64,000 nucleotides of DNA from Gekko japonicus (lineage: Eukaryota), in NCBI RefSeq assembly GCF_001447785.1, contig NW_015165859.1:328664-392663 (forward strand). Direction: 5' to 3'. Positions 1 to 46,105 of this stretch are shown in pieces (the first letter of the stretch is position 1; each line of letters begins with the position of its first letter). The position numbers were made by a program, and so were the translations under genes. A model generated the notes under the pieces. The model was not told the origin of the DNA and did not search any database. It was given only the letters and a program-made list of their open reading frames with translations.

Positions 1-359
1 CAGCGCTTACCATCCCGAGACCGATGGCCAAACGGAACGGGTTAATCAGACTTTGGAGCAATACCTACGCTGTTTTACTAATTATCAGCAATCTGATTGG
101 TGTGATTTGTTACCTTTGGCTGAGTATTGTTATAATAACACTTTTCACAATTCGGTTGGAATGTCCCCTTTTAAGGCAAAGCAGCGCTTACCATCCCGAG
201 ACCGATGGCCAAACGGAACAGGTTAATCAGACTTTGGAACAATACCTACGCTGTTTTACTAATTATCAGCAATCTGATTGGTGTGATTTGTTACCTTTGG
301 CTGAGTATTGTTATAATAACACTTTTCACAATTCGGTTGGAATGTCCCCTTTTAAGGCA
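1..359 (+). repeat. Tandem duplication of integrase sequence, period 181 bp
   Basis: cagcgcttaccatcccgagacc starts at 1 and again at 182; the copies differ at about 2 positions. Confidence 0.9.
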
Positions 360-1050
360 GTGTTTGGATATGATAGCCCCCCTCTCCCTTTTTTGGTAGG
401 GGACTCTCGTATTCAACCTACCGACACGGGTTCCTGGTGTGAATCTTTACGTGAAGCATGGCCTTTGTTATGCCAGACGTTGGACTCTGCGAAAAATAAA
501 TACAAAACTCAGGCTGACAAAAGCCGATCCAGGGAATGGGATCTACATCCTGGTGACTATGTCTATGTCTCCACAAAAAACATTAAACTGTTACGTCCCA
601 GTAAAAAGTTGGGTTGGAAATATATTGGGCCTTTCAGAGTCCGCAGAATCTTGAATGATGTTGCTGTTGATGTTGACTTGCCAAAGAACCTTAAGTCATT
701 GCATTCTGTGTTTCACTTCAGTCTCTTAAAAAAGGATACTGGCCAATGTAAATGGCGGGACACACATGTTCAGGCCCCCCCCATCCTCATTGAGGGGCAA
801 GAACATTTTGAAATTTCGGCCATCTTGGATTCCAAGTATAAATGTGGTAAACTTTGGTATCTTGTGGAATGGGTTGATTTCGGACCCCAGCACCGGGGAT
901 GGGTGGAAGAAGGGGATATTCGGGCCCCTTATCTTGTTCGTACATTTCACAAGCCGTTCCCGGACAAACCGGGAGGCCTCCCGGGGAACCCGGGAGATCT
1001 CCCGCCGGGGCCGGGAGGGGGGGGTAAGTTGTATTTTCAGGTGGGCAGTA
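1..1050 (+). mobile_element. Ty3/Gypsy chromovirus-type element, 3' part of pol: integrase core C-terminal half, GPY/F module and chromodomain
   Basis: ORF 24..1130 contains [25 protein letters not shown] (integrase core), YIGPFRV (GPY/F) and FEISAILDSKYKCGKLWYLVEWVDFGPQHRGWVEE (chromodomain); a purine-rich stretch precedes the LTR. Confidence 0.92.
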
Positions 1051-1277
1051 TGTCAGCGTTGCTGTTCTCAGGCCGCTTCGCGCCTTTTCTAATTTGTAAC
1101 CTAACGAGGGAAATGAGCTCATTGGTCTAAACCTTGTTTGAAGTTCCTTTAATACACCTTCCCTGGTTATTGTAGTTATTCCTAACAATCTCTGTATGTT
1201 CATGATCAACCATGCTTTGGAAATAAATCTTGCTTCTTTTTGAACGTGGATCTATTCTCCTGATTTGGGATCTAACA
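1051..1277 (+). repeat. 3' LTR of the chromovirus element
   Basis: Begins TGTCAG and ends CTAACA (imperfect terminal inverted repeat); AATAAA at about 1222; follows pol. Confidence 0.65.
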
Positions 1278-1654
1278 CCTGATAGCAACCCTCTGAGAGT
1301 GTCCTTGGAGGAATGAGGAAAACCAACTAAGGACAGCACCCCTCACTCCAAGGCAGTCAATCAGTTAAATCAGAGGTGTCGAACTCATTTGCTACAAGGG
1401 CCGGATCTGACATAAGTGTCACTTTGTTGTTCTGGGCCATGCATGCCATAATATGTAACATGAGGTACCAGAGATATGTACTTTATAAAGGTGATTTCAG
1501 ATGTTGAATGGCAATAGCAGGGGAATAACAATAGCAGGCTTGATTGGATTAGGTGTGATATGCAGATGGGTAGTAGGTGTGGAGATACCAGCTTTGGTAA
1601 TGAGACAGGAAGCCTAAGTCTCAATTCCTTCCAGGAGGATTCAATCCAGGAGGA

Positions 1655-1856
1655 CGCAAAAAATAAATGGACATACGTCTGACATTAGAAACCAGAACAT
1701 TCAGTTGCTGCCCTAAGAGTAGCGGTCCTCTTAGAAAGGGATTTCAGAGGGAGATTAGAAAGAGAGCCTGCTGAATTGCAATTGATAATGAAGCTCAAGA
1801 AAATGCATCCTCCTGGACTGAATTGAGATCTAGTTTTCCTGTCTCATTACCAATGT
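1655..1856 (+). mobile_element. Penelope-like element, GIY-YIG endonuclease C-terminal remnant
   Basis: Degenerate translation KINGHTSDIRN...LRVAVLLERDFRGRLEREPAELQLIMKLKKMHPPGLN*DL..LSHYQC resembles the ends of vertebrate Penelope elements. Confidence 0.65.
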
Positions 1857-1857
1857 G

Positions 1858-2250
1858 CAGGGCTTTTTTTCTGGGGGAATGCATTGGAATGGAGTTCCGA
1901 AAACTCTTCAACAAAATTCTTTTTTTTCAAAAGCCCGGGCGCCTAGCAACCGGAAGTGGCGCTGCAACTTCGGACTGCTCCGGGAACGGCTCCCGTGTAG
2001 CAGCTGAATCGCCGGTCTTTTTAGGGAGGTCCGGGACTGCCTGGACCCATTGAGCTTTCCTGTAGGGGAGCTCAAGCAGGGGGGCTTAAACTGGGCACTC
2101 CCGTTTGCAGCAGCAGGCGGGTAGACCCCAGATCGCCCCAATGCAAAAGACCTGGTGAGCGCATCTAATGGCAGCCATTAGTGCACAGCCGTGCACACCG
2201 GGACGATCAGGAGACCTGATACTCCGTACAACTTGAAAAAGAAAAGGTCT
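1858..2250. mobile_element. Probable hAT-type non-autonomous element (CAGGGCTTTTTT end)
   Basis: Starts CAGGGCTTTTTTT and ends AAAAAGAAAAGGTCT; GC-rich core; no clean TSD. Confidence 0.4.
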
Positions 2251-2268
2251 TCGTACTGTGAGTAAAGG

Positions 2269-2618
2269 TAAAGGTAAAGGTTCCCTTGCTCGAAAGCCAG
2301 TCGAATCCGACTCTAGGGTTGCGGTGCTCATCTCCATGTCAAAGCCAAAGAGCCAGCGCTGTCCAAAGACGTTTCCGTGGTCATGTGGCCGGCATGACTA
2401 AACACCAAGGTGCACAGAACGCTGTTACCTTCCCACCGAAGTGGTCCCTATTTATCTACTTGCAATTTCTTGCTTTCGAACTGCTAGGTTGGCAGGAGCT
2501 GGAACTAGAGACAGGAGCTCACCCTGTCTTGCGGCACCCGGGTCTTGAACTGCTGAACTACTGACCTTCCACAGCCTGCAGTTCAGCGTCTTAACCACTT
2601 GAGCCACCGCAGCTCCGC
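2269..2618 (-). mobile_element. Sauria SINE, full length
   Basis: tRNA-derived head GGAGCTGCGGTGGCTCAAGTGGTTAAG on minus, (ACCTTT)n tail, 14-bp TSD ACTGTGAGTAAAGG at 2255-2268 and 2619-2632. Confidence 0.92.
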
Positions 2619-2649
2619 ACTGTGAGTAAAGGAGAGCACAATATCTGAA

Positions 2650-3798
2650 AAGCCATTGTGGGTTGAAAGCGCCTTTAAACTTTAAAACCCTGACTAGAAG
2701 AAAAAGAAGAGGTGGATATTCCACCCCTCCTTTCTTTTAGCAGCTTGGGAAAGTGTGGAACAGTGAGACAGAAAATATTTGGCGCTATAAAGAGACTTGG
2801 TTGATACTTGACAACAAACTCTTTAATAGAATACATTAAAACATTGACCACAGTTTGGATTATAACAATTATAAATAACTTCAAAAAGTGAACCCTTTTT
2901 GTTTTCCTTGGTTGGCATGGACTAGTATATTTGATATAAGAACTCCTACTTCCTTCCTCTTCTCCCTAGTTTGGGTGGGGTTTTTTTGTTTTGTTTTATT
3001 TTTTGGTTTTATTTTGGATTTCTTTTCTCAAGAATTTCTATTAGATTGCATTTCTACAATATTTACTGTATTTGGATTTTATTCTCTTTCCTTTTGTAAC
3101 TTGGATACCTGGGATTTATCCGTTTGAATTACAATTAAGAATTTCTTCTCTGATATTTTGGATTTATAAGTGTTTTTTTCCTTTTCTTGTGGAATACTTG
3201 GAGTTATTGCTATCTTGTGAAGATTTTCTATTGGATAACAAAGATGGCTATTCTTCACAAGTGGATTACAAATGGAGACATTTAAGCCCCACTGGAAGAA
3301 AGAAGAAAGTGGACAGTACTCTTAGAACATTGTTTCCGAGGGACTTGGTATTGTTTGGTCTATTCAGATAGTAACCACAAAATATAAAGTGTTCCTTTAG
3401 TAATGTAAATAACTTCATAAGGTGTTTTTTATTGCATAGTCTGGGAAAGGTTATTGTATTACTGTGACAGGGAGTGTAAACAAAATACGGGCTTTGTTTT
3501 TGAAAGGGAGGAGTGAGTGATTCTTTGTTCTTAATAGAAGGTTTAAAATATGGCTAGTGGCATGAGGAAAGGTCCTGGAGGACCACCTCCAGGACAAATG
3601 AAATTTGTGGCCACCAATTTAGCTCAAATTTCAATAAAGGACTTACAAAGCCTGATTCAGGAGGTGGTAGCTGCAGCTGTGGATCCTATTCAAGTAAAAC
3701 TAGATTCACTTGCCCAGCAAGTTACTACGCAAACTAAAGAGATTAAGAAACAGATTGCAGGGAACTTCTGGTGGCAGGAAAACAGAATGGCAGCTTGA
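2650..3798 (+). mobile_element. L1-like 5'UTR and ORF1 N-terminal remnant, truncated
   Basis: ORF 3550..3798 is coiled-coil-like (SIKDLQSLIQEVV...LDSLAQQV) and resembles the ORF1 remnant at about 56135. Confidence 0.5.
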
Positions 3799-3799
3799 G

Positions 3800-6700
3800 C
3801 CTCTCGCTCTGCTCACCCTGATCCGCACCTAGCCCCCCAAATCGATCATACTTGAGTCTTCAACTCCTAATTTATGGGGATAGAAACCGGAGAAATTCAA
3901 CATCCGTATCAGAAAAAACAAAAGAAACTGCAACTCTTAGATTTGAAGCTACAGACAGAATTGTCTAACAGCCCTCAAGCAACACCGAACGACAAAATGG
4001 CGTCGGGCATCAACGCAGCTGCCAAAGATTTGTCATCTATAACAGCCACAGACTTATCAAATGCGCTTATAAACATGGAAAAAACATTATTTGAACACGT
4101 CACCGGGATGTTTAAACCTCTTTATGAGAAATTTGTAGTTATGCAAAACAATCTGTCTGACACACGGAACATGGCTGAAGGAGCATTACAGAGAAGTATA
4201 CACAACCAAAACGAAATCCAACAGATCCAAAGACTGAAGAACTTCTAGCAGAAAAATCTTTACGTCTCGACTTAACAATGTGACAAAACAATCTCAAATT
4301 ACATGGACTAGGAGAAAAAAAATTTTTAAATGGCAATCTCGCCAACCATATTTCGGCATGGCTATCTCAAAACATTAAAATGGAGGGAGAGTACTCTAAA
4401 GCCATCACTAAAGCATTCCGCTTGGGTCCCACGGCTCCCACGGCTCTCCTCTGAAATTCTAATCACCCTCCTGGACGCTAAATATAGGAAAGCTATCTTG
4501 GCTGATGCTAGAAAGAAGGGCCATATACTTTACCAAGGAGAAAAAATAGAAATCTTCCCCGACTTGCCACGCGAAGCAATGCTCAAACGTTGAGAACTGA
4601 AGCCAATTACAAGTTGCTTAATCGAAGCAGACATCAGGTATTCATGGGTGACCCCGTTAGTACTACAATTATCCTACCGGGGGAAACAGCATAAGTTTTT
4701 GACACTCGAGGAGGGCTACAAGGTACTGAGAATGCTGAATTTAGAAATCCCTATGGAGCTCACCAGACGACAAAATAAATGGCGCCACTCCTCTTCTTCA
4801 TCATCTCCGCCACCAGTTCCATCACCAAGAGGCTTCTCTTCTTCGGAGGGATAAGTAGACACACACAGACAATGTTTTGTTTCTATACCCGTTATTACTG
4901 TAAGTAGCTTAAAATGCTGTTATACGTGTACAAGCCTGATACGCCCGACTCATTGATTACACCAAGGCAGTTAAAACAATTCTGATCAGGTTGCATTACC
5001 AGTTTGTAATCAACACAATGCCCACTCTGTACACTACAGTTTATTTTAAAATGTTCTTATTGTTCCAGTTTCGTCTAATTTCACTTGTTGCTTACTGTTG
5101 ATGCACTTTGTATGCTTTATATTCTACTATTGGGGGTGGGGGGGAAGGGGGGGCTTTTTCAGTATTTTAATTTGCGTTGTGCTCGTTAGATAGGATAGAC
5201 TCGCTCACTCTCTAATCCTGAATACTGGGTGGTGTAGTGATCAAGAGATCAACTCAGCATCCCGTCTATTGCTTTATAGACGGGAGATCTGAGAGTGAAG
5301 CTTATGGGAGACAGAGCTGAATAGCGGTAACTCCTATTTATAGTTTAACGTCTCCACATTCAGCATTGTACTTAGATTTTCTTTAACCTGTTAAAACTTA
5401 CACAAGGATCTTCCTCAATTGCACATTATTTGACTTGCATAGTTACAATTTAGAATAACCTGTTGACTGTATTACTGACAAAAATAAACATATTGTTCTT
5501 TTTTATAAAATAAAAAGTAATAATCTACAGCCAGTTTACATGTCCCACTGCTTGATCTATATATATTTATCAGTAACAGCTTGAGTCACAAGTGCTGTAT
5601 TGTTAACACATACTTTAACAATTTGTCCCACTACAATTTTGGCACGTAGTGACCCACAGTAATACCTTTGAATTAATTATATTATCTCCCAAATTTATCA
5701 CCTTTTGGCATTTATAAAGTGCTAAGTGCCTTAATCATCTGCTTAATCAATTTATCTACTGCTGATTATATAATTTAAAAAATATATTAACTTCCTAACC
5801 TATTTTACTGTTTTTAAATATAAAAGGGAATTAATCAACTATCCTCTTTTACTCACCTAATCAATTTTCTATGTGATTATAACATTTTATTATCTTTAAG
5901 GATTGGGTGATTCAACGTAATACCTCAGGAATTCTAATATTGCTGTATGTACTGATTAGACTTTATTGCTTAGGGACACGGCCTAATCTTATTAACTTAT
6001 TATTTTTTCCATCTAAACTTTCACTGTGCTCAATAGTGTATTAGCAGGCCACAATTTATTGGGACTTTATCCTATTTTAGGTCAATTCTCACTACTTCCA
6101 CTCATAAGTTCTGCTGTATTGTATTTCTAGCAGCTTTAATAATTAATACTTACCTAATTCAACAAAACCTCCAGATCACCTTAAACCACATTAAGGAACC
6201 ACTTACGCTTTACAATTAATACCAAGGGGATTGGCTTTGTATATCCTCACTCTTGAGGCCCATTTAACACTAACACTCTCTGATTCTCTTGCAGCATCCC
6301 GGTACTATATCCTAACAGCATCTTTATATTTCCTAAAGCTTCATTACAATGCAAGCTAATATACGGGTCATTTCATCAAATGTCCGTGGGTTGAACAACC
6401 CCATTAAAAGACACAGAATTTTGAACAATTTGTTAAAACTGAATCCAAGCATAATTATGCTGCAGGAGACTGATCTAAAGAAAGATGAACAATTTGTATT
6501 TCAATCAAGAAAATTTCAAACCCAATACATGGCCCCTGGATCATCAAAATCTAGAGGGGTAGCCATCCTTCTTGCCCAAAATTTACGTTTTACATTGAGT
6601 GCCCAAAAGAAAGATACACTAGGCAGGTTTTTATTTTTAAAAGGGCAATTGGACAATAGACTGGTAACAATAGCCACTTTATATGCTCCGAACAGTGGAC

Positions 6701-7240
6701 AACTAGACTTCCTTTCAGGTGTATTAAACGAGCTAAAACACTTTGCCGAAGGAGACATCATTCTCGGGGGGGGGGGACTTTAACATGATAACAGATACAC
6801 ACATGGACAAATTGTACCACTCTCAATCCACATTGAAACCCAAAAAACGATATACTAAACTGGACGATCTTTTGAAACAACATGATTTAATTGACATTTG
6901 GCGTTTGACGCATATGGGAGAGAAATATTACACATACTTTTCTTCTCATTACAATGTACACACCCGTATAGATCTCATACTCTTAACTCCATCATTAATA
7001 CATGATGTAGTTTCCACCAATATAGAACCATCACGTTGATCCGACCACGCTTGGTTGGAATGTAATCTGTCCCCATTTGACCAAAGCACTCCACACAAAC
7101 AGTGGACACTGAACTCCTCTCTGTTGAACAATCAGATCTTCAGAGAGGAAACTGTGAAAGAACTGGACAAATACTTTGAAACTAACACTCAGGACGAAGT
7201 CACTAATGGTTTGGGATACCATGAAACCGGTAATGTGGGG
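3800..7240 (+). mobile_element. Decayed L1 LINE: ORF1, ~1.5 kb inter-ORF spacer, ORF2 endonuclease; 3'-truncated
   Basis: ORF1 fragments 3874-4854 (coiled coil; YQGEKIEIFPDL); APE endonuclease from 6349 (SSNVRGLNNPIKR, LQETDL, LYAPN, GGDFN, DIWR, TRIDL, SDH) with a frameshift and stops. Confidence 0.9.
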
Positions 7241-7260
7241 GATTACCATTTCAAAGTCCT

Positions 7261-8145
7261 CTACCAGGGATTGAATGCAGTGTCTTCGACCAATGCTTAT
7301 CCCATGCCTTTGATCAAAGATCTACTGGCTGAAGTGGCAAAAAGGGAAAATTTTCTTGAAGTTGGATCTCTGCGACGCTTACTTTCAGGTTCGCATCAGG
7401 GAGGGGGACGAACACAAGACTGCCTTTAATACGCCCCTGGGTCAGTTTGAGTACCGTGTGATGCCGTTCAGTCTTCAGGGGGCGCTGGGGGTCTTCATGA
7501 ATCTGATCAATGAGGTGTTGCACAAGCACCTGTTCAAGGGGGCGCTTGTTTACCGAGATGATATTTTGCTGTACTCCCCCAACCTACCTTCCCATGTGAA
7601 ATTGGTGAGGGAAGTTCTGACCACGTCGCACAAGATCTCTGACAAGGGCTTGGAGATGGACCCGGGGAAAGTACGGGATGTGTTGGGCTGGGGAGTCCTT
7701 CGCACCAGGTGCCAGTTACAATCCTTCCTCGGGTTCGCGAACTTTTACAGAAATTTCCTGCCCAACTTTGCCCAGGTCAGTTTGCCACTGACCGACTTGT
7801 TGAAAACTAAGGGAAAGGGGCTGGAAGCAACCAAGCCAGGGGCAGCATTGGCTTGGAGTCGGGAGTGCCAGGAGGCTTTTGAATGCCTCATGACTTTGTT
7901 CACCTCAGAACCAGTCTTAGCTCACTCGGATGAAATGAAAAAGTTTATTGTTCAAACTGACGAGTTCGATGTGGCCATGGGGGGGGCATTCTCCAAGAAG
8001 GGGAGGATGGGTTACTGCACCCCTTGGCATACGTGTCAAGGAAGTTTAATGCCACGGAACGCAATTGGTCAGTTGGGGAGAAGGAGGCAGGGGCCATAGA
8101 ACTCGCCCTGGCCACCTGGAGACACTGGTTGGAGGGAGCGAGAGT
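7261..8145 (+). mobile_element. Ty3/Gypsy RT-RNase H fragment, decayed
   Basis: YQGLNAV..YPMPLI, KLDLCDAYFQVRI, KTAFNTPLGQFEYRVMPF, VYRDDILLYS, QSFLGFANFYR, AYVSRKFNATERNW. Confidence 0.9.
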
Positions 8146-8816
8146 TGCTGTATACCTTAAGAATCCAAAAAGCAAAAAGTTAAAACGGAGGTCGCTGTTA
8201 TGCAAGGCATGGTGGCCATGCCTTGCTCCGCCTGTTCCTGCAGCTTCAGGGCAGTAATCGCCACACCTCCACATTTGCCATATGCGGGGGGGAGAAACAA
8301 GCCCCCTGCAACTCATTCCCCCTCCAGGGGAACAAGCGGAGCCCACCCCAAATTCGAGGGGCTCCAAAAGAGCAGAGGAGAAGAGTGCAGCTCTGGAGCG
8401 ATCCGAAAAGCTGCACCGCATCACAGCGCCATTACCGCAGCACAGAGATCTCTTGAAAGCTCGCTCACTCACAACTTTAATATCAGTAGCTCACAGAGTA
8501 GAATTTTTGCTCACAAGTCTCCACAGCTTAGAGGGAGCATTGATGGCCACCACCCCGCCAGTCCTTATGAGGAAATGGCCTGACCATGACCACTTTGCCC
8601 ATGGTCCCCCATGGTCCCAGGTAAGTCTTTTAGTATATGTGCTACAGAAGCGAGCGCATCCCAGTTGAATCGAGCGTGGGTCTTCTGGAGCATTTCTTTG
8701 CTTAATAAAGGAGATGAAGCTAAGCACAGAAGTGTCTATTTGATGTGCCACACTCACAGTACAATACCTCCCAGACCCCAAAAGGACCAGGGTCCCTTTG
8801 CAGCACTAGGGCTTAC

Positions 8817-8907
8817 CTTGGAAGCTAACTTCCGTATTGTCCTGGGTTTAGGGGATTCTGTAGAATGTGTCACACACACTGAGCTCTCCACCTCCTCCAC
8901 TCTTGCC
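8817..8907 (-). CDS. Candidate coding exon (91 nt, phase 2 to 0) of an unidentified gene; ARVEEVESSVCVTHSTESPKPRTIRKLASK
   Basis: Acceptor ccttctcgttctttcattgcag, donor AAG|gtaagc, open frame, phase matches exon 11267-11060; no repeat recognised at this position. Confidence 0.6.
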
Positions 8908-9038
8908 CTGCAATGAAAGAACGAGAAGGAAGACTAGACACAAAGTCACAAGTTTCTCCTAACCAAACAAACTCGGTCCTGGTTCACAGATGCAGAAGAA
9001 TGAGGAAGGAATGGACTGCAGCACTTCAGGAGGTTCCA

Positions 9039-9256
9039 TAGAATTGCCAGCTTCTGGGTGGGGCCTGGAGTTCTCCTGGAATTACAACTGATATCCGAAA
9101 AACAAAGACTGTTCCCCTAGAGAAAACGGCTGTTTTGGAGGGTAGAATCTATGGCATCAAATCTCTGCTAAGTTCCCTTCCATCTCCAAACTTCTCCCTC
9201 CCCAGGTCCCATCCCCAAATCTTCAGGAATTTCCCAATGTGGAGCAGACAAGTCTA
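9039..9256 (+). mobile_element. Diverged hAT (TAGGGTTGCCA-TIR family) MITE
   Basis: Similar to the copy at 60166-60384; degenerate TIRs. Confidence 0.6.
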
Positions 9257-10329
9257 AGACCAGGTTTTGCACATTCTGTTGCCTCCCCCGCCCAATGCTT
9301 CCTGTGACTAGAAAAGTAGCAGAATGCTCATACCCCCTGCTTGCTGAGCAAGTTTACATGCATTTTTTTAACACACATGACAGCATTCAAAATGTTCTGA
9401 TCCCCAACTCTTCCATGTGTGAACCAGGCTTTAGTTCAGGGGTCCCCAACATGGTGTCACAGGTGCTATGAAGCCAGCTGACATCATTCCGGATGCCCAC
9501 CAGGTATTTTTAGAAAGTGGGTGGGGCCAGGTGGAGCATTTGCCTCACAGGACTCCTGATTGGGGGGGGGGGGCAAGTATGTCAAACTCAGAGTTTCGTT
9601 TGCCATTATATTCTTTGTTCTCGGGTTCAGGGATGCTTTGTATGACCCGAAGGAGGGGGAGGGGCATGTGTCTGAGTGAATGTGTGGGAATGTGCTTTGC
9701 TAGATGCCTGTAACGTTTTTCTAAGGAGCCTCCCAAGAAAGGAAGAGAAATGTGTCCTTGAAGCCTTTACTGCCAGGAGCGCTGTCATAGATAAAGTAGT
9801 GTGAATTCACAGGTGGGAGGAGGGATGAACACACAATGGCTTGGAGGGACGAATGACTGGGATGATTGGAAGGGGCACTGGAAATGATCTATGTCACTTC
9901 TGGTTTTCAGGGGAAGTCACATCAGCACACTGTCATGATGCTAGCATGGCAGTCCCTGCCCCCAAAATGCTCCCAGGGGTCACCAGCTGGGGCCAGGGAG
10001 TCCTACCCCAGGCCTCCTACCTGCCTCCTCATCAGACAGTCCAGAGTGGCAAGCTGCCAGCTAAGCCCATCTCAGCCTTGGCTTTGTTTAGCTCAGTACT
10101 GGAAAACAAGCGCCTCCCTACAAAGACAGAGGGCATTTCTCCCCCCTCTAAGCCATGTCCATCTGCATCTGGACTGTAATTCATAGGTGTGGAAGCCAAT
10201 CGGTCCTTCTCAATACCATAAGACTCCATTGAACAGGACTGTCAATCATTCTTCTTTGCCAGGGAAGACATAAGAAAAAGATAAAAATGACTAAACAGGG
10301 AATCTTGGCTAGAGAAATTTGATGGCTGT

Positions 10330-11033
10330 TAAGAGTTGCCAACTCCAGCTTGGGAAATTCCTGGAGAAATGGGAGTGGTGCCAGGGAAAGATGGAGTCTG
10401 GGAAGGGGAGGGAGCTCACAGGAGATGTGGTGTCTCTATAGGACCTCTTTCTACTAGACTATATGGTATACAATAGAGTCTGTCCTCAGAAGCTGTCATT
10501 TCCTCCAGGGGAAGTAGGTTTGCCAACCTCCAGGTGGGGCCTGAAGCTCTCTCAGAATTACAGCCTATCTCCAGACTACAGAGGTCAGTTCGCTGGGAGA
10601 AAATGGTTGTTTTGGAGGGTGGACTCTGTCAGATTATACCATGTGGAGGCCCCTCCCCTATCCAAACCCTGCTGCCCTCCATAGGCTCCACCCTCCAAAT
10701 TTCAGGAATTTCTCAGCCCAAAAAGTAGTCAGCCCTCGGGGAAGTGACCTATGTAGCCTGGAGGCAAGCTGTAATTCCAGGAGAACTCTGGGCCCTACCC
10801 TGAAGGTCAGTAATCCTAAATGTTACTTCTGATGAAGGGAGCTGTGTAGAGTTGTGAATCTCCAGGTAGTGGCTGGAGATGTCCCAGGATTACAACTAAT
10901 CTCCAGGCAATGGAGATCAGTTCACCTGGAGAAAATAGCCGCTTTGGAAGGTGGACTCCCCAAACCCCACCCTCCTCAGGCCGCAGCACCAAAATCTCCA
11001 GGTATTTTCCCCAACCTGGAGCTGGCAGCCCTA
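10330..11033. mobile_element. Cluster of three TAGGGTTGCCA-family MITEs (10330-10818 with a nested opposite-orientation copy 10515-10735; 10847-11033)
   Basis: Shared internal sequence (ctccaggtggggcctg..., ggagaaaatgg..gctttggag) and degenerate TAGGGTTGCCA/TGGCAACCCTA ends. Confidence 0.6.
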
Positions 11034-11059
11034 GAACTTTGACTCTCCCAAGTTTATAC

Positions 11060-11267
11060 CTTGGGAATCTTGTTGGTCCTTCAGGTGTGACTGGACTCAA
11101 ATCGTGCTGTCCTGTGTGTGCTACTGCCTCTTTAAAGCTTCCATTTCCCCTTTTATTCGCATTCAGGCCTAATGAATCCAAGGTGTGTGTTTGTTTAACA
11201 CATGCCCATTTTTCATTCAACAAGTCCTGCCTTGCAAATGCTGCCCTTTGCAAATGGTGTCTGTTTT
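11060..11267 (-). CDS. Candidate coding exon (208 nt, phase 1 to 2) of the unidentified gene; NRHHLQRAAFARQDLLNEKWACVKQTHTLDSLGLNANKRGNGSFKEAVAHTGQHDLSPVTPEGPTRFP
   Basis: Acceptor ggctttctccctcttactaacag, donor AAG|gtataa, open frame (part of ORF 10816..11253), phases match both neighbouring candidate exons. Confidence 0.55.
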
Positions 11268-12979
11268 CTGTTAGTAAGAGGGAGAAAGCCAGCAGAACAG
11301 ATTCAAATGTTATGTCTCACACAATGACATTTTGCTGTTGCAGGCAACTACTCTCTTAGTGTGAGGGGGAAGCTATTGCCCTTCAGCCGTTCATCTGGCT
11401 CTGAGTAGGGTGTTTGAAGAAGTTCCTATAGTAACTCAGCTGCTGAACAGAAAGCTGAAGCTTCCCCTCTCCCCTCTCTTCAGGTATAAACTTCCTTTGC
11501 CCAAAGAAAACCAAACCTTTTTCAGTCTCCCTAAGCTTCTTGGAGGAAAACAGATGTGCACAGCCTGAGGACTTTTGCTGCACTCCACTCACCTGCCGTA
11601 TTGCTCCATCCCTTAGCTCCCAAAGGGTTACCAGACCTGTGCCTGATAATGCTGGGTGCTTGGGGGGGGGGGCACTGATGCGACAGTGTGATATCACATT
11701 GCTCTAGGATTCCGCAAAACTCTATTTTCCAACCAAATCCTAGAGCAGCATGACATCATTTTTTGGTTCGACCCAGAATGATGTTGCGCCATCATGTTGA
11801 CAGTGATTTTTCCTCCTTATTTCCCCCATACTGGCCTAGCAAGCACCAGTGGGGCTCAAGGGGTTTGCCAACAGGAGGTCTCCCACCATAGCACAAGACC
11901 TGGCAATCCTAGCTCCCAGAATCTGACACATAGGTTTTATTGTAAAATAGTCAAAAGTGTTTAATACTATCTTGCTCTATTGGAAAGAAGAGATTTCTTT
12001 GCTTTAAAAAACCTTTATTTCTAAGGTACACGGGATTACTACAAATAAACATAACACTAACAGCTACATTTTCTAAGCTGTCTATAGTCAAACACTAGCA
12101 CAGATAATGGAGAATCTGTCCTTCTTCTCAACCCCTAGAAAGGAAGTCACCTGAAAACAAACAGCCAATCTGTATCACAGTAGAAGCTATTTTTCCCGGG
12201 CTAATTCCCCATTGGCTTACTGCCAGGTATCCCTTCCAGGTCAGTCTAAACAATAGCAATACTAGGCAAACAAGTTAACCCTATAATGACTGGATTGTCA
12301 GACCTTGTAAACACATACATTTCCAACAGGTTTCAGGGTCTGAGCTTTGAGAAGCATGGAGATTGGAGTTACCAACCTCAAGGTGACCTCCAAACTACAG
12401 AGATGGAGGAAATGGCAGCTTTGGAGGGTGGAATCCATGATATAACATACCGTCTAGGAGAAAATGAAGTCCTCAGGTAACATCACATCCCAGCTGAGCT
12501 CCCTTCCTTCTAAAATTCTGCCTTCCTCAGATAGCATCCCCAAATCACAAAGTATTTCCCAAATCTGAGTTGGCAGTCCTTGTGGAGATCCCTTCTAGCA
12601 GGCCCTTGTTGTACAAATCCTGTAGATATAGCTGGTCTAATACACTCCAACAAGGTTCACTTTCACACATATTGGGAGTGACACAAGAGCCACTTCCACA
12701 GGATGCAACTATATACATTCTGTCAAGATGGTAAACAAAGGCCCCGGTCACACGGGGTCGCACGGCCAAAGCGCGGCTTTTCTGAGCCACATCATAATAG
12801 ACGTGTGGTGGCAGGATCAGACAGATCCCCGAGCTGCTGCGCAGTTGCTCCCTGGCACGATCAGATGCCGGGGGGGGGGGGGAGTCACGGAACGGAGAGC
12901 GAGGCAGCCAGCTGCGCATGTGCGCGCGTGCGCAGTTTGGCCAGGAGCCTCAAATGCTGCAGGAGACGGGCGTGCCGGT

Positions 12980-13039
12980 GATGGGCTTTGTGAAGGTGTA
13001 TTCCTGTTCTGTTTGCATTTAAAACAAGCTGTTTCAGGA
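12980..13039. repeat. 60-bp segment that is an exact inverted copy of 15874-15933
   Basis: gatgggctttgtgaagg...gctgtttcagga is the reverse complement of tcctgaaacagc...cacaaagcccatc; the left copy is flanked by direct repeat AGGAGACGGGC (12961-12971, 13040-13050). Confidence 0.9.
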
Positions 13040-13054
13040 AGGAGACGGGCTGCC

Positions 13055-15270
13055 TGTTATGTACGTGGACCGCCTCCAGGGATCCGCGGACAGGCCAGAG
13101 CTTGGATCCGAAAACAAAGGAAACTTCGGATCCTGGATTCCCCAGCCCCAACCAATAGCCACCTTGGCTGGACATTTAAACCCTCCAATGGGAGTGGGGG
13201 GGTTGCTGGTGGATATGTATATAGTTGGCCCTGTTGGCCGTTAGAGTTAGTCTTTGTCTGTGTTAAGTACAATAAACGTATGCTACAGTATGTCGTCGTC
13301 CGAGTCCTCCATGCGGCGAACCCAGTACTTTTCAGTGGCGACGAAGGTGGGATCCCGCTGAGCCAGGCCTGGCTCGCATCCCAGTCCAGCACCGAGCAAC
13401 GTTCCAGCCAATGCGCCCGCCCCGCGAGTGCACGGCCTCAAGGAACCCCGCTCCTCGCTAATGCTGCGCTATGGCCTCTGCTCGGGGAAACTTGGAGACC
13501 TATGATCCAGCCCATCCTGAGCTCTGGGACTCGTGGACCGACCAATTGACGTGCCATTTAGCCTACAATGATGTATCCGATCTGGGTAAGAGACGGAACC
13601 TCCTCCTAAGCACATGTGGGGTGAATACCATCCGCCTCGCAAAGAGCCTCCTCGCACCTCGGTCAATCCTCGAGTGCTCGTACGAGGAGATCATCGACAC
13701 GCTAACCAGCTACCTCACACCCAGGCCAACCACCCTCGCCAAGCGCATCGAGTTCCAGACCCGGATCCAGAATACGGGAGAGACGGCAGCGGCTTTTCTG
13801 GCAGCCCTGCGGCAACTGGCCATGGGTTGCTCCTTCACGAAGGTAGAAGAGAATCTTCTGACGCAATTAGCGTGGGGCATCAGCGACCAGAAGCTGCGAA
13901 GAAGGTTGATCGGGACGGCCGACATCACGCTCGATGTTGCCCTCCAACTCTCATAAGAACATAAGAACATAAGAGATGCCAATGTTGGATCAGGCCAAAG
14001 GCCCATCCAGCCCAACACTCTGTATCCCACAGTGGCCAGAAATACCAGTGCCATCAGGAGGTCCACCAGTGGGGCCAGGACATTAGAAGCCCTCCCACTG
14101 TTGACCCCCCCCCCAAGCACCAAGATGACAGAGCATCACTTGCCCCAGAGTCCCTATCTATACCTTGTGGCTAATAGCCACTGATGGACCTCTGCTCCAT
14201 ATGCTTATCTAATTCCCTTTTGAAGCCGTCCATGCTTGTAGCCGCCACCACTTCCTGTGGCAGTGAATTCCATGTGTTAATCACTCTTTGGGTGAAGAAG
14301 TACTTCCTTTTATCCGTTCTAACCCGACCGCTCAGCAATTTTATGGAGTGCCCACGGGTTCTTGTATTGTGATCGCCCATCGCCCACGAGGCCTCGCACC
14401 GAGAGCGTCAGCCAGCGACAGCTCGCCTCGTACTCCCCGACTCAGGCCCTGAGAACTCGGAAGAGGAGGACATCCAGCTTGTCCGTCAGCCATCGCGTCG
14501 GAGGCCACTGGGTTCCGAGGCATCAGGATCAACCGGAAAATACACTGGGCAGCCCTTGTGCGCCAGCTGCGGCGAGGCAAACGAGCGCAAGTCTTGCCGG
14601 TTCTGCGATGCAACGTGCCACACCTGTGGGAAACAAGGCCATCTCGCTCGTGTCTGCTGGTCAAAGAGAAGCAGGTACCAGCAGCCTTCCACGCAGCCAC
14701 ACCGCCTGGCCACCAAATCCCATGAGATGGATGCAGAGACGTCCGACCTCTGCCTCCTCACGGACCGGCCATCACTGTAGGTACTCCGCCTCCCGAAAGT
14801 AGAGCCTACCCCGAAGATCCAACTAACCGTACGGATCGAAGGGTCCCCCTGCACAATGGAAGTGGACTCGGGGTCTGCAGTGTCCATTATTTCCGTGGAC
14901 ATGCTACGCAGACTTTGCCCAAATGGGGGACCCTGCTTGCGCCCGCCCCACTTGAACTTGGTAGACTTCCAAAGGAACCTGGTTCCTATACGGGGAGTTG
15001 GGTCGTTCCGGGTACAGTTCCAGGGGTTCGAGGGACTGTTGGACTTGATTGTAGTCGAGGGAAATCTGGTCAGTCTGCTGGGAAGGGCCTGGTTCGCACC
15101 GCTGGGCATCACAGTCGGGGTCGGGGGAGTGCTTAAATGCGGGGTGAGAGACTTTGCAGAGATTTGCGGAGAGTTCCCGGCCGTTTTCGATGGGGCTTTG
15201 GGTTGCTACAAGGGCCCCCCAGTTTCCTTACAGTTAGACCCCAAGGTGGCCCCAATCCGAGTTTCAGGTA
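13055..15270 (+). mobile_element. Ty3/Gypsy element (K02A2.6/Mag-like): 5' LTR, PBS, gag with zinc knuckles, protease; truncated before RT
   Basis: LTR 13055-13334 (TGTT...TTCA); PBS TGGCGACGAAGGTGGGAT at 13336-13353; gag ORF 13471..13956; CASCGE and CHTCGKQGHLARVC knuckles; protease MEVDSGSAVSI. Confidence 0.9.
13952..14372 (-). mobile_element. 5'-truncated CR1 LINE inserted into Gypsy gag
   Basis: CR1 ORF2 C-terminus TRGHSIKL..RTDKRKYFFTQRVINTWNSLP..FKRELDKHM; (TTCTTATG)n 3' tail. Confidence 0.9.
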
Positions 15271-18200
15271 GGTAGTACTCTTTTCTAGGTTTTTTTTAAT
15301 GCGCTGTTTCACCCGGAAAAGACGGATTGGGGATGGGTGCGCTCCGCTTCCCAGATGTTGCGGTGTGCTTGCGCCCATTTGATGCGCCCCCGATCCGTCC
15401 CTCTTGCGGGGCAAAACCTCCCGTGTGACCGGGGCCCCAGTAACCACAGAGTGGGCCAATCACATGGCACTCTCTGGGAGGGAAGGAAGTGATCAAGTCT
15501 GCAAGAGTCATGTGGATAGAGACATCTGGGTGGATAGATACATCAGTCACATGTGCTCTGCTGTGATGTAGGAGCAAGGTTCCCCCCCCCCCCATTGTCG
15601 AAGGTGCATGTGAAGTGATTCTGATCAGAAAATCGGGAGATCGAATATGTAGGTCCCCCATTCACATGGCCACCACAGCAAGGGAGCAAGATGGATTTCT
15701 GTGGGGTCATCCATCTAAGAAGGGAGGGAGGTCTCAGGTAAAGCCAGCTCTGAGTTGAGAGGCAGCAAAGCAGAAACATTGGAGGTGGAGATGAAAACAG
15801 AACCCGACACTAATTGTTCACTGAAAGATGATTCCTCTTGAACTCCCTGAGGCTAACTCAGCTGAGGCCTGCGTCCTGAAACAGCTTGTTTTAAATGCAA
15901 ACAGAACAGGAATACACCTTCACAAAGCCCATCGGCATGTTACAGAAGAGAAGGGGGAAATGCTCACAAACAGGCAATGTCTGATTTAGAGATTCTGACT
16001 CACTCATACACTTGTCAAAATGCATGAATTTGGATAGAGCTATCAAAGTTGTGTGTGTGTGTGTGAATCCCAGGCCTAAGAAATCAGCACTGGATGCGAC
16101 AAAGGAGGGACAGGTCTTAACTACGTTTGTTCAGCAGTGTGCTTTACAGCAGCATCACAGCAATTTTATAACACTGGGATTCAGCAAGACATGGGGGTTT
16201 TCCCACACCTAGATGATCTCATGTGGTTTCCCCTGTTGCTGCTGTGGCTGCTGATTCAGTGAAGCAGCAATGAGGCTTCTACATGGTGGCTTTCACCATG
16301 TTTTCCCTGCCTTAGTTCCCCACAACCACAATTTTCTACCACGTTATAACATAATGCTATAGCAATTTATTGCCAGTCTTCCGTCCCCAGTTTTCATTTT
16401 TTGCAAGTTAGTCTCTAGACATTATGTAGTTATAAAAGGAAAGGTGCGAACTACTTTTACCTTCACAATAAAAAAAGTGATACAGACTTGCTTTAAAAAC
16501 AAAAACAAAATGTTGGGAATTAGTATATTGTTGCAGAAGATATTTATAATGCTATAGCAATTTAGCAATCCCATTTACAAGGAAAGCCCTTCTGTGGGGT
16601 GGAATGGTTTTGATGTGAGTGGGACCACAAAAACTCTGTAGTTTCTCATCTGTTTCAATCCTTTTGGGGGGGGAACCAGAATAAAGCAAATTTTGAAAAG
16701 AACGCAGAAAAACTTGGGAAAGTGCAGGAAGTATACAAAAGCACCATGATACTACAGGGAAGCAAGAGGAAAGAACATGTTTCTCAATAGCATCCATGCT
16801 GGGGCAAAGAACCGGTGTGTAAGACCCCATGTGCTGCTTTCAGGGAGGAGCCAGTTGCAGTGCTCCATCTGCTAAGACACAGTAGGAGTTTACAAGTTGG
16901 AATAAAGTAAGGCTGCCTTCACATCCAACAGTTGCACATCATTTCTCTAGCACAGTGTCCAAGATGGATGCAACCCAAGCGTTTTTGTTGTTTGATTAAG
17001 CCAGTATAAATTTTGTCCTGGATCTTCAAGGTCGCTTTTTGTACATAAATTGTTCCATATGCATCTCTAAAATTCTGTCCACTTTTGCCACAACACAGTA
17101 GGATATACAAAAGGTATACCTTCATTTAAGGTATACCCTAAATAAGGGTACACAAAGTTCAGGGCAAGAGGTGGATTTTAACACTTTCTCAAGTATATTT
17201 TCCAAAGAGGATGGTGCCCATCTGTGCCCCACCAGGCACACATTCTAGGCATACAGCATGTATACAGCCCTCATACATGACAAAATATGCCCAACATAAC
17301 TCTTTCACACAAACATGTTTGAATGCAGGAAATAACCTCTAATGTCAAACTCCCACATATCTAGCCTCATACACTCAGTCCTGCTCCATAATAACACTTA
17401 GCATTTCTGTAGTGTTTTAGAAGATCTAGAGTACTTTATATGCATTATCTTGCAATCCTTACAACAGTCTTGCAAGGTAGGACGAGATTCAGTGTGGTGT
17501 AGTAGTTAGAACATGAGGACTCAACTATGTGAAACACAAGAGCTCCCATGCACAGAGCTTCCTATGGCTTTTTCCTGTAAAATTCAGGTGCACAGGGGCC
17601 TAGTTCCAATCAGGAAAACTGTTTGGTTATGGGGGTTAAGCCTCGCCCTCTTGCTGCTTTCCCATCTGGAAATGGCCCCAAGGAACCAGCAGGGCAAAGC
17701 AGTGGCTTTTCAAGGCTGTTTAAGGTCACAAAAAATTCTGCAAGTGGAAGGCTTAACTCCTCCTCCCTACGCCACAGTTTCACTCTGAATTAGGCCTCTT
17801 GTGTACCTGATTTTTAGAGAAAAAACACAGAGAGCTCCTTTCACAGAACTTCTGCCAGCCCTTGGAGTTCAACCTTTAAGAATAGGAGGGGGAGAGACCC
17901 AGGTTTAAATCCCGTGCTGCCGTGAAGCTTACAAGGTGACCTGTCATGCTCTCTCTATGTAACATCCCTCACAAGGCTGTTGTGAAGACAAAAGGGAGAA
18001 CCCATTTGCTGCCTGAATTTGATGGAAGGAACAGTGGGATAGAAACCTGACAAGTGATACTTGGGTTTACACCAATTCAGACCATACTACATTCACGTAC
18101 TGACCTTTGAGAGCATCCCTTATTGGAACAGCCAAGCACCTAAAGACAAATCATTTTCAGTTCTGTACTTGAAGGTCTAGTCCCTGCCCCTAGAGATGAT

Positions 18201-18285
18201 GACATCGCATGCTACAGCCTGCTGGGCGGGGGTGGGTGGGAAGACTTCCATTCCAGGGTCTGGCCCTGATGGTGCACTACCTAAA

Positions 18286-18866
18286 TCTATATATCTAATT
18301 CCCAACATGCCCCCTCTGTGCGGATATCTAAATCCACACATCGGGGGCACTTGGGGGGGCAGGGAGATTTCCCTGCACATTTGGGGCAATACCAAGATGT
18401 GCAGAAAAATCTGAAAACTTGGGAAAAAATATACGGGGGATATTTAAATATTAAAATCCCCCCCAAAAGTACAGCTGCCACCGCCATGGAGGGATAGGGG
18501 GTGGGAGAAGGCTTGGGCGACCGGCTGGCGGCTGTAAGCTGCTCAGCCCTCACCACCGCTGGGGGGGGGGAAAGTTTAGCGGGCTGAGCTCAGGCCTCAC
18601 TGCCGCCGCCGCCGCCACTGGGGGGAAGGGGGAGCGGGAGAAAGCTTGGCGGGCCGGCCAGTCCTCGCCACTGCCACCGTGGGGGGGGGAGGGAGAAAGT
18701 TCGGCGGGCCAAGTTCAGGCCTCACCACCAGTGCTGGGGGGGGAGGGAGAAGGCTTGGAGGGGCGCGGGCCTCACTGTGGGTGCCGGGGTCGGGGGGAGG
18801 GGAGAAGGCTCACCTGCGGCTGCTTCCTTCTCCCCCCCCCGCGTGTATCGCAGGTCCCCTTTCTTG
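18286..18866 (+). mobile_element. Non-autonomous Helitron-like element
   Basis: 5' TCTATATA, 3' CCCGCG-N5-CGCAGG hairpin followed by TCCCCTTTCTTG; inserted between A and T with no TSD; related to 58193-58598. Confidence 0.7.
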
Positions 18867-19098
18867 TTAATCCTAATTACTACTGTCATAGTCTCCTGCT
18901 ATACGCACATGCTAAATTCACACAGAAATACATCCCGACCCCATGCATGTGCAACTTACGCAAGAATGTGCGGATACTCTTAAACACACACAAGGGCATC
19001 ACTGCACACCCTTTTTAAAGGGGGGGGAAGCCATCTAGCGGAATGCAAGCATGGGGTGCCAACTGTCCAGCCTCCCCAGGCCGTCCCCCTGGACTCAC

Positions 19099-19195
19099 CT
19101 TCTACGGACTTTTTGCTCTTGGCTCCTCTTCTTTCTCTCGCCACATCCATCCTGGGGGTCTCTCGTGCCCACCACACTTGGCCCATCCTCTCCAT
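19099..19195 (-). CDS. Candidate first coding exon (ATG to phase 1) of the unidentified gene; MERMGQVWWARETPRMDVARERRGAKSKKSVE
   Basis: ATG in strong Kozak context (acaATGG), donor AAG|gtgagt; the frame stays open upstream to 19621 (possible acceptor ctgtctctctag), so the true start is uncertain. Confidence 0.45.
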
Positions 19196-19797
19196 TGTCT
19201 TGCCGCCCGAGGCTTCCTTTGTTCTTAGAGAAAAGGCGAGAAAGTCTCCTCCCGAGTCCCTCTTTCTGTGGACAGCGTACCTGACCTTCAGTCCTGAGGG
19301 CCATTTCGAATGGCAGGGGAAAGAGCCACCAGAGGAGGGTGAGCTGAAACGGTTGTTCTTTGCACATCCACCTGGCAAGCAAACCTCATTCCTTTCTTTC
19401 CATGGCCAGAAGCACATTAGTTTTATCTGCACTTTCCTTGGCCTCAGAGCTCCCACGGCTGCCTGGGAGGATCCGGGTGTGGAGGGTGCGGCACCCGCCT
19501 GACAGATCTCAACCTGACACTTTGGGAAAGGCGAAACAGCAAAGTGACCGGTTGGAGAACTAGCTAGTGAGGGATTGGCTGATAGTCTGGAGGCTTGGCT
19601 CCAGGAGTGCACACCTAGGGCCTAGAGAGACAGGTGGGTATTGTAGCTGCAACGGACTTTGGCGTTCAGGTAATCGTAGGGATAGGAAATGGGGATGAGG
19701 TAACTGGCACGCTCCAGCAAAAGCTGCTGGGCACCTGAGAGCAAATCAAAACAGACCTGGCAACCTGAGCCTCAGAAGGGGGAGTGTCTGGGACTTG

Positions 19798-29400: not shown

Positions 29401-32400
29401 TATAAAGTACTGAGACTGATGCATGGAGAAGTGATTTCAGCTCATACTTTATTATGTACAGGATACCTTGAGAAACTTAGTCTGGCCCGACGCCGGCTTA
29501 TATCCACATAGCAAACCACGCCCCAAACACACAGCCACAACCGTGATAGGCTATTTACAGTGTCCCCCAGTCCCATAGGTCCCTCCTTGGATCCTAGCCG
29601 TCCGATAGGAGCGCACTAGGATCTTTTGGGCTATTGTCTTTGGAAGCGAAGCTTGGGCCCTTCGCATGGCCACGTGTGCGGCCCAACCACATGTGCGGTC
29701 TCACTGGGTACACAACACCCCTCCCCCCTTGGTCCAGGTTACCCTGACAGACATAATCCTTTAGGCACGTGGGCCTCCTTCGCTCCCTAGTGGAGCGGTG
29801 GATGTCCAGAGCCAGGGCTGGTGTCTCAGGCGTGGTTCCTGTCGGTTCCGGGGACGGGATCTCTGCCACTGGGGCCGTTGTCGGGGTTGGTGTGCTACTG
29901 GGCTCCAGGTCGCTGGTTGGTTCCGTGTTGCCACTGTCCTCCCCTCTGGGTAGAGCGCTTGCCCCTGGATGCGGAGGATCCGTGGCCTCTGGTTCCGGGA
30001 GATAATGATCGTCATCGTCTGTTGCGTCTGGGGGCGTGGGTCAGACGTGGTGGCACAGTTGATTGATGTGTCACCTCCACAGTTGGCCGTCTTCACAGGA
30101 GACTTCATATGAGAGGGGCCCGGTCACCTGAACAACTCTTGCCAGAACCCAGGGGGGACCTCGGCCGTAGTTCTGGGCATGCACGGGGGCCTCTGGAAAG
30201 AACCCTCGCGAGGCCTCCTGGTCTTCTGAGCTTGCGCTGTGTTCTGGTGTGTGGTCTGGATGGAGGTGGTCCAGATGGGTTGTCAGGTGGCGGCCCATGA
30301 GTAGTTCCGCAGGACTGCGGCCGGTAGTAGAGTGAGGGGTTCTGCGCTGGCTAAACAGGAAGGTGGCCAGCTTGTAGTCCCAGTCTCCCTGGTCCATGTG
30401 GCGCAGCACCTCTTTTGTCATCTGGACTATGCACTCCGCCTGACCGTTGTTGGCAGGGTGGAAGGGAGCAGAGCGAATGTGCCTAATGCACGAACTCCTG
30501 AAACTCCGTGGAGGTAAAGGCTGTGCCATTGCCCATCACTAATGAGTCAGGTATGCCATGGGAGCTGAAGATCCGCCATATTGCATGGATGGCGGATCGG
30601 GATGAGGTCTCCAGAACTGGTGTCACCTCCAGCCACTTAGTGTAGGTGTCGACCAGAATAAAGAAGACCTTGCCCTGGAAGGGCCCAGCAAAATCCAGGT
30701 GGAGTCTTGCCCATGGCTTGTGGGACGACTCCCATGGTCTCACTGATGCTTTTGGGGGCTCGGGTCGTGTCTCCTGACATTTATGACAGTGTTTAATCAT
30801 ATCCTCAACCTCGTTGTCTAGCCCTGGCCACCACACATAGCCCAGGGCCAGAGCTTTCATTCGGACTATCCCTGGGTGGTGTTTGTGCAGGGTGGAGAGT
30901 ACTTGTCTATGCAGGGGTGGTGGTATCACCACCCGGCTTCCCCACAACAAGCACCCCTTGTGGGAAGATAACTTGTCATGGTGGGCTGCGAATGCTGAGA
31001 ACTCAGGACCCACTGGGCTGGCAGGCCAACCCCTCCCCACCCAGTCAAGGACCCAGGAGAGGACTGAGCAATCGGGTAGGTCCTCCAGCAAGGCAACAAG
31101 GTGGGCCGGAGCGGGGTCAGGGTCAGAGGAGGGCAGTGGGAGGCGGCTCAGGCTATCAGCGTACCCTATCGCTTTACTGGGACAGTGGATCAATGAATAC
31201 TGCTAGCCCTCAAGGAAGATGGACCAGCAGAGCACACTGGGAGAAAAAATCAGGGGGGTCTGGTGGTCCGGGGCAAGGAGGCCCAAGAGGGGTTTGTGGT
31301 CAGACACAATTGTGAAAGCCCAGCCATAAAGGGAATTGTGAAATTTTTTCATGCTGGCCACGATTGCAAGGGCTTCCTTATCAATTTGCATGTAGTTGCG
31401 CTCTGCGGCCAACAGAGTGCGAGAATAATAAGCCATGGGAACCTCGAACCTCGTGGTGACCCAGGACTGCCCCCACCCGGTAAGGAGATGCACCGCACGC
31501 TAACACCACGGGCAGGGACTCGTCGAAGTGGGTGAGGACATCGTTCAAGACTAATAGGGCCTTGACTGCCCGGAAGGCTTCGTCATGAGCTGAACCCCAG
31601 ACCCACGGAGCATGCTTATCTAAGAGTCTGTGCAGCAGTTCAGCGATGGTGGCCTTGTGGGGGAGGAAGGAATGATAAAAGCCTGTAACTCTGCCTTCGA
31701 AGAGGGTGTGGGCGCTTGACTGATGGCGCGTATCTTGTCCTCCGTGGGGTGAATCCCTTGGGCGTCTACTGCAAACCCCAAGAATTCCACCCGTGGCACC
31801 CCCAGAATGCATTTCTCCCACTTCACCTTGAGGCCGGCGGCAGCGAAGCGTTCAAGCACAGTCCGGAGCTGGGCTGCAAAGGTCTCGGAGTCCGGGGCTG
31901 CGATCAAAACATCATCAAAGAACGACTGGACTCCCGAGATGCCTTTGAGGAGACAGTCCATCAGATTTTGAATAATCCCTGGGGCCACGCTCACCCCAAA
32001 CTGCAGGTGCCACACCCTGAAAGCCCCCCTGTGGGTCACTATGGTTTGAGCCTTGGCAGAGGCGTCGTTCACCAGCAGCTGCTGATATGCCTGGGCCAAG
32101 TCCAGCTTGCCTGGCTTTCATCTAGATGGGATGCACTGCTGGGTCAAGTTCAAGGGAAACCGGGGTTCCGGAGTAGCGGCCAAGCGTGCCATGGAAAACG
32201 CCCTGGGAAGTCCCCATGGACTGAGTTAAAGTTCTGTTCACAGAGTTTGTCCATGAAGGTGGAGGCTATTTTGCTGGGCTTCTAGAGGCACTTGGAAGTC
32301 CATGACCTTGGCCATCATGGTGGGCTTCGGCGTGTAGTACTTCGTGAGGACCTCTACGATCTCATCATATGAGTTCTCTGTTAGCTTCTTCGGTTCTTCT

Positions 32401-42334: not shown

Positions 42335-42548
42335 TCATTCCCTGGTTTCGGGAAGAAGGGGTGAGCTGTGCATATCTTCATCCTCCCGGAAGTAGGCGGG
42401 CTTTCCCTGAGAACTGGGGGATTGCTGTATTTTGACAGGGCAGTTGGCAACCATGTGGGTGATGCTTTGGCAGAAGTGGCATTTCTTTGGCTGAGGTGGA
42501 AGCTTGCATTCTTTGGCATGATGATCCAGACCACCGCAGTTGTAACAT
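42335..42548 (-). CDS. LIN28A: LIN28A last coding exon: two CCHC zinc knuckles and C-terminus
   Basis: Acceptor ttctag|A; (R)CYNCGGLDHHAKECKLPPQPKKCHFCQSITHMVANCP...REDEDMHSSPLLPETRE*; the short tail is typical of LIN28A. Confidence 0.97.
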
Positions 42549-45803: not shown

Positions 45804-46105
45804 TTAGTGTGTTCAGGGAACACTCACTCAGAAACAGCTGCCTCCATCGTAGGAGGATGCTTGGCTTGGAACTGTCCAAGATTTTGTGAATGCTTATCTT
45901 GTGAATGCTTTCAATGTTTTGTGATTCGTCTCTCCCACTCCATTGAAGCCATTTTCTTGTGGCATTCAATCTGTTCCCAAAATTCCAAGAGTGCCCTACG
46001 GGTTCTATGAGGCTGGGGGCTTCTGGCCTAATGCAGGTGATTCTCCACCTAAAAAACATGACGCAGCTGTCTCCCTACTTACTAACTACCTGGCTGAAGT
46101 CTCAC

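Follow-up and report, generated by a model that had tools for sequence, protein, structure and literature searches.

The 64,000-nucleotide stretch of Gekko japonicus DNA analyzed here, the window, spans positions 328664–392663 of contig NW_015165859.1, and we also read 200 kb on either flank. Positions are those of the window unless given as contig positions. Downstream of LIN28A, the minus strand carries three short islands at 19195–19099, 11267–11060, and 8907–8817, which the original prediction had chained into an unrecognized multi-exon gene. Their lengths (97, 208, and 91 nt), their GT-AG ends, and their phases (1, 1 to 2, and 2 to 0) are as described, a strong-context ATG is present at 19195, and the three spliced islands do translate as one open frame. 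As a gene, the set held up in part: the outer two islands, the first extended to 19304–19099, are likely exons, and 11267–11060 is likely a chance look-alike. Judged from sequence comparison, 19304–19099 and 8907–8817 are very probably exons 1 and 2 of CRYBG2 (AIM1L), joined directly to each other, with 11267–11060 an unused pseudo-exon. The orthologue proteins used throughout are RefSeq gene predictions, and splice sites were scored in bits from approximate matrices.

The first coding exon of the long form of CRYBG2 would lie at 19099–19304 on the minus strand. From ATG 19304, it spans 206 nt (68 codons and 2 nt) and ends in phase 2 at 19099, where the donor (gtgagt, at 19098) scores 12.3 bits. 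A tblastn search placed residues 1–77 of turtle CRYBG2 at 19304–19113 (E 6e-4), and caecilian and frog N-termini matched the same spot more weakly. We then built a profile from 11 orthologous CRYBG2 N-termini and scored it on 14,628 open segments of 464 kb. The 19304 frame was the best of all segments with an E of 6.9e-7 (runner-up, 2.1). Scored alone against the profile, it reached 31.1 bits, versus 1.7 for the ATG-19195 frame and at most 1.7 for the three frames of the middle island. The conserved frame begins at ATG 19304; the first island as drawn earlier (19099–19195, minus strand, from the internal ATG) is in a shifted and unconserved frame that, without the middle island, meets a stop after 44 aa. 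ATG 19304 also sits in a strong context, 109 nt upstream of ATG 19195 and 123 nt downstream of a TATA-like GATAAAA (19421–19427, minus strand), a putative promoter element. This GATAAAA at 19427 and the E-box and GC-box words upstream agree with the elements noted earlier; there is no TATAWA.

Exon 1 from ATG 19304 encodes a basic, predicted amphipathic motif, GLGRRLSRLFSK, whose hydrophobic moment, 0.92, exceeds that of all other windows among the 470 that make up the first 480 aa. The combination of a basic N-terminal motif with an LSYSE motif about 100 aa further on holds for the ATG-19304 frame only. In 11 orthologues, 100–113 residues lie ahead of LSYSE, and the two-exon model gives 101. 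Aligned with turtle CRYBG2, the two-exon model matches from residue 1 onward (E 4e-76, ~500 aa), whereas the earlier three-island model aligns only from residue 106.

The second coding exon would be 8817–8907 (minus strand, 91 nt, phase 2 to 0), with an acceptor at 8907 of 11.6 bits and a donor at 8817 of 11.2 bits. Since this acceptor is in phase 2, exon 2 joins exon 1 directly. Taking the next exon's acceptor as the anchor, we compared the 30 residues of exon 2, ungapped, with eight turtle and alligator proteins, leaving out the amphibian ones, and found 7–11 identities. None of 10,000 shuffles reached this alignment score, and among the 625 open phase-0 GT sites of the 48 kb separating exon 1 from the third exon, it ranked first. 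The predicted intron 1 (8908–19098, minus strand) is 10,191 nt long, repeat-rich, and matched in phase (2/2). The predicted intron 2, whose first part covers 1–8816 on the same strand, measures 37.8 kb in total and ends where the next exon begins at contig 299657, ~29 kb left of the window.

The original prediction expected the gene to go on left of the window, and further CRYBG2 exons are indeed found there on the same strand. Reading of the left flank gave a 428-aa minus-strand frame (contig 299732–298449) that contains the third exon of 1,139 nt (contig 299657–298519; donor 9.3 bits), then a 1,296-aa minus-strand frame (contig 241752–237865) in which the large exon begins at contig 241660 with an acceptor of 13.5 bits, and finally beta/gamma-crystallin exons at contig 229383–204562, on the strand of the islands. 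No stop interrupts the 1,743 codons that run through exon 1, exon 2, the 1,139-nt exon, and the large exon. The last of these junctions, a predicted phase-2 join, matches the one in a Heteronotia binoei RefSeq model (P0002). We could dispense with further short candidate exons in the interval from exon 2 to the large exon, since orthologue proteins run collinearly over both joins. Within the large exon, at L053:6490–7290 (minus strand), serine/proline-rich units of ~12 aa are repeated in tandem in degenerate form.

Next, we searched 1.84 billion representative proteins with the 403-aa third-exon query, taken from the acceptor. The 14 matches comprise three full-length CRYBG2 proteins (a turtle and two frogs), five fragments labeled "uncharacterized" (sources: four lizards and one caecilian), five proteins without names, and one unrelated repeat protein. 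The best are from geckos, at 80% and 74%. The match begins at residue 100–114 of the full-length CRYBG2 proteins, and therefore ~100 residues would be encoded further upstream. With turtle residues 1–200 as the query, all eight matches were CRYBG2-type, from seven turtles and one alligator, and ESM Atlas returned no usable match for the turtle N-terminus. The caecilian protein had one significant match in the whole genome (1 of 5 below E 1), at the CRYBG2 locus. Toward the other end of the gene, residues 1339–2024 of one orthologue (P0008) and 1501–2186 of another (P0025) map exon by exon to contig 230556–192369 on the minus strand, and the last gecko exons match the orthologue C-terminus at 55–78%. 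Six Pfam Crystall stretches are present in 3/3 full-length orthologues; Ricin_B_lectin was found in P0012 and P0015 and is listed for P0025 but not for P0008. At E 0.1, Pfam was blank for all five gecko queries (the frames of 1,296 and 403 aa plus the small exons), consistent with a long low-complexity N-terminal region that lacks known domains. By alignment, then, this is an ordinary known gene, the gecko orthologue of CRYBG2, whose 5′ exons are already modeled in turtles, alligator, and frogs. We infer that a single transcript of ~155 kb, joined at predicted junctions, likely runs down to contig position 192369 and encodes a protein of ~2,400 aa.

An alternative is that exons 1 and 2 and the 1.1-kb exon make a separate short transcript of ~500 aa with no crystallin domains, in which the internal donor is read through to a stop and an AATAAA, and that CRYBG2 proper begins at the large exon, as in the human gene. 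The third-exon frame does continue for 23 codons past the donor to a stop, with AATAAA ~620 nt further, and the large exon offers a start codon of its own, 34 codons downstream of the acceptor. In the annotation, the caecilian model stands as a separate locus of 505 aa, and read-through of the third-exon donor is also seen in six other matches. However, the turtle, alligator, and frog models join the upstream exons to the crystallin part, the third-exon donor and large-exon acceptor are both strong and in phase, and a gecko model uses the join. We interpret the read-through tails of the lizard matches, which drift in frame, as resembling ab initio calls on DNA. We therefore regard the separate transcript as improbable; the short form could be a minor isoform beside long CRYBG2. 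Just past the same donor, at L052:4446–4519 (minus strand), ~8 codons are similar in six lizard-like database matches, and with the stop and AATAAA ~620 nt on, this stretch may be a conserved intronic element or the end of a short terminal isoform.

The middle island (11060–11267, minus strand) is a probable pseudo-exon within intron 1. Its acceptor is fair (7.9 bits) and its donor, gtataa, is weak (4.1 bits). The islands had been described as free of recognizable repeats, but the last 44–60 nt of this one, together with its donor, are a dispersed repeat. The short repeat end at 11040–11119 overlaps the island's 3′ end and donor, and occurs in at least 39 other genomic places among the matches listed, seven of which we aligned at 81–87% identity. 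At three other loci (L003, L005, and L008), the repeat is present as inverted pairs 70–150 nt apart, so it may be a terminus like that of a miniature inverted-repeat transposable element, a small non-autonomous DNA transposon. The 5′ three quarters of the island are single-copy. Spliced after ATG 19304, the island brings a stop at codon 87 of the conserved frame; it only serves to bring the ATG-19195 frame back into phase.

We estimated how often such an island arises by chance using 10.2-kb control tiles from the opposite strand; of 34 tiles, we discarded 8 that contained N and kept 26. Open phase 1-to-2 pseudo-exons with splice scores equal to or better than those of the middle island were present in 4/26 tiles at a length of at least 200 nt, in 5/26 at 150 nt or more, and in 20/26 at 45 nt or more. 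The real intron 1 holds three open phase 1-to-2 candidates of at least 45 nt, and the middle island is the sole one of at least 150 nt. At this rate, chance suffices to account for it. None of 12 candidate homologues of its peptide scored, in a weak search that covered proteins of 120–2000 aa with shared words. The island is likely an unused pseudo-exon. The 132-aa peptide proposed earlier would then consist, over its first 102 residues, of the wrong exon-1 frame and a phase-restoring pseudo-exon, and is probably not made. Because the exon-1 frame had been misread, the gene could not be named.

Could the middle island instead be a real, repeat-assisted cassette? It would act either as a poison exon, with the stop at codon 87 leading to nonsense-mediated decay, or with a dual-coding exon 1, where a start at ATG 19195 would give an otherwise unchanged CRYBG2 body an alternative N-terminus of 132 aa. 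In the ATG-19195 frame, no stop occurs in any downstream exon tested (1,776 codons), its start codon is in strong context, and the island is the only candidate of its length in the intron, with most of its sequence single-copy. Against this stand the weak donor inside a repeat, the chance rate of 4/26 tiles, the lack of a scoring homologue in the search above, the blank Pfam result, an orthologue alignment with no room for the island, and an upstream ATG, 19304, in an equally strong context. We give a functional cassette very little weight.

The reading as a lineage-specific orphan with three exons and no relation to CRYBG2 can practically be dismissed: the middle-island peptide is without a database match, but two of the three islands are homologous to turtle and alligator CRYBG2 exons, exon 1 also to amphibian ones, and both matches (E 7e-7; 0/10,000 shuffles) would have to be chance. 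Homologues outside lizards are found in turtles, an alligator, a caecilian, and frogs, and the N-terminus is in the RefSeq CRYBG2 models of turtles, alligator, and frogs rather than confined to one lineage. The match is to a well-known gene, an outcome that the original prediction had itself named as refuting its novelty. Its suggestion of fast-evolving sequence was right. The gecko N-terminus is 30–36% identical to that of the turtle and ~12 aa shorter.

Several observations weigh against assigning exons 1 and 2 to CRYBG2. No RNA read from four runs supports any junction. In three raw runs, of which 3–12% was read, and one contig set, depth was zero over 8600–8976 and coverage fell on repeats only. 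Lacking a control on the CRYBG2 body, this blank is uninformative either way. No lizard model that we found carries exons 1 and 2; in the four named models, the third exon comes first and the N-termini are unrelated. The exon-1 peptide search scored 0/27 candidates and found no database protein with the gecko exon 1, again among proteins of 120–2000 aa sharing words with the query. Furthermore, the orthologue support comes from gene predictions, and the caecilian model (P0011, 505 aa) does not extend beyond the third exon. Some orthologues have only a modest hydrophobic moment, with values of 0.62 to 0.88 in seven of them, in six of which it falls on the same motif. The introns contain stretches of N. 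Assignment to CRYBG2 rather than CRYBG1 or CRYBG3 is probable and follows the names of the matched models. Actin binding is known only for the paralogue AIM1/CRYBG1 and may extend to gecko CRYBG2 by analogy.

The window and its left flank hold further features. Broken gypsy-like copies at 13400–15300 and 29600–32300 retain pieces of a gag zinc knuckle, protease, reverse transcriptase, and integrase. A repeat at 13960–14372 is very abundant in the RNA runs, with a depth of ~4,000 in one run. Additionally, a stretch at L052:4030–4070 (minus strand) resembles the 5′ end of U6 small nuclear RNA, and a reversed, degraded look-alike is near 8640–8680.

The upstream neighbor of CRYBG2 is LIN28A. As described earlier, the islands are downstream of this minus-strand gene, whose last coding exon, with two CCHC knuckles, is near 42550 (42334–42549, approximate ends). 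The remainder of LIN28A extends in the right flank to contig ~447 kb on the minus strand, and the intron between its two cold-shock-domain exons (window 46080–46340; contig ~447 kb) is ~72 kb. Beyond it, we found on the plus strand a C2H2 zinc-finger (ZNF683-like) gene at contig 499–509 kb, between LIN28A and DHDDS, a DHDDS match at contig 533331–549425, and an HMGN-like exon at contig 579 kb. The names LIN28A, ZNF683, and HMGN2 are putative ones based on motif resemblance, LIN28A also on the original prediction. For the zinc-finger exon of the C2H2 gene, which lies past LIN28A at a distance of ~150 kb, ESM Atlas and PDB searches gave nothing more specific than generic C2H2 fingers. UBXN11 and ZNF683 had been candidates for the islands from synteny and were dropped, as no UBX, SEP, or SET motif was found there.

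The order over contig ~192–593 kb is CRYBG2(−), LIN28A(−), ZNF683-like(+), DHDDS(+), HMGN-like(+). The human order is CRYBG2(−), ZNF683(−), LIN28A(+), DHDDS(+). Compared with human, the gecko arrangement fits a single inversion of the block with ZNF683 and LIN28A, in keeping with the local rearrangement suggested earlier. The window has no DHDDS match, just as no DHDDS exon had been seen in 36 kb of it, and DHDDS is present ~85 kb beyond the 5′ side of LIN28A, past the ZNF683-like gene. The inversion would therefore explain the DHDDS gap and why the 5′ end of CRYBG2 sits downstream of LIN28A. One source reports that crybg2 neighbors znf683/prdm1b in the species studied, and that znf683 is apparently absent in chicken and Xenopus (PMC7662092). 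A ZNF683-like gene is present in the gecko, in contrast to the absence reported there for chicken and Xenopus.

As long-form comparators, we used turtle XP_067399469.1 (2,024 aa), Alligator mississippiensis XP_059586303.1 (2,186 aa), and frog XP_063810797.1 and XP_077151835.1. The gecko gene shares with them the N-terminal motif, the ~100–113 aa to LSYSE, a collinear third exon, a large low-complexity exon, and crystallin and lectin exons that are 58–91% identical. By the name of its orthologues, it is the same gene as human CRYBG2 (AIM1L). A published account of human CRYBG2 describes six crystallin domains, an AIM1-like exon layout, and a 32-kb gene (PMC3554465). Compared with that figure, the gecko gene is ~155 kb (49 kb from the large exon to the end), and it has three upstream coding exons in addition. 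Among the named database matches to these upstream exons, there was no mammal, bird, or fish, in a search of limited sensitivity. Among the papers listed for CRYBG2, AIM1L, and crystallins, we found none on a CRYBG2 N-terminal extension; one listed paper treats the synteny of the region.

The gecko protein would start with a basic amphipathic segment at its N-terminus, followed by a long disordered linker, six crystallin domains, and finally a trefoil lectin. AIM1/CRYBG1 binds beta-actin and needs its crystallin domains to do so, according to one study (PMC5529512). By analogy, CRYBG2 may well act as a scaffold tying the actin cytoskeleton to a membrane or to a partner, a role we favor to a modest degree. 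A membrane role for the N-terminal helix is more tentative and somewhat doubtful.

As a discovery, the locus offers little; its value is a corrected gene model. In the lizard CRYBG2 models that we examined, exons 1 and 2 are missing, or the piece is annotated as a separate "uncharacterized" locus. The locus also shows cleanly how a chance pseudo-exon can "rescue" a misread frame in a GC-rich exon. Of some evolutionary interest is a conserved CRYBG2 N-terminal extension, with no mammal among its named matches, beside a LIN28A inversion breakpoint. One scenario, which we consider unlikely on balance, is that the gecko order is ancestral and that the inversion toward the human order broke inside long CRYBG2, removing the three upstream coding exons. 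If true, mammals would have been left with a truncated CRYBG2 beside a rearranged LIN28A, minus ~480 aa that include an amphipathic helix of membrane type, which amphibians, turtles, crocodilians, and lizards have all retained.

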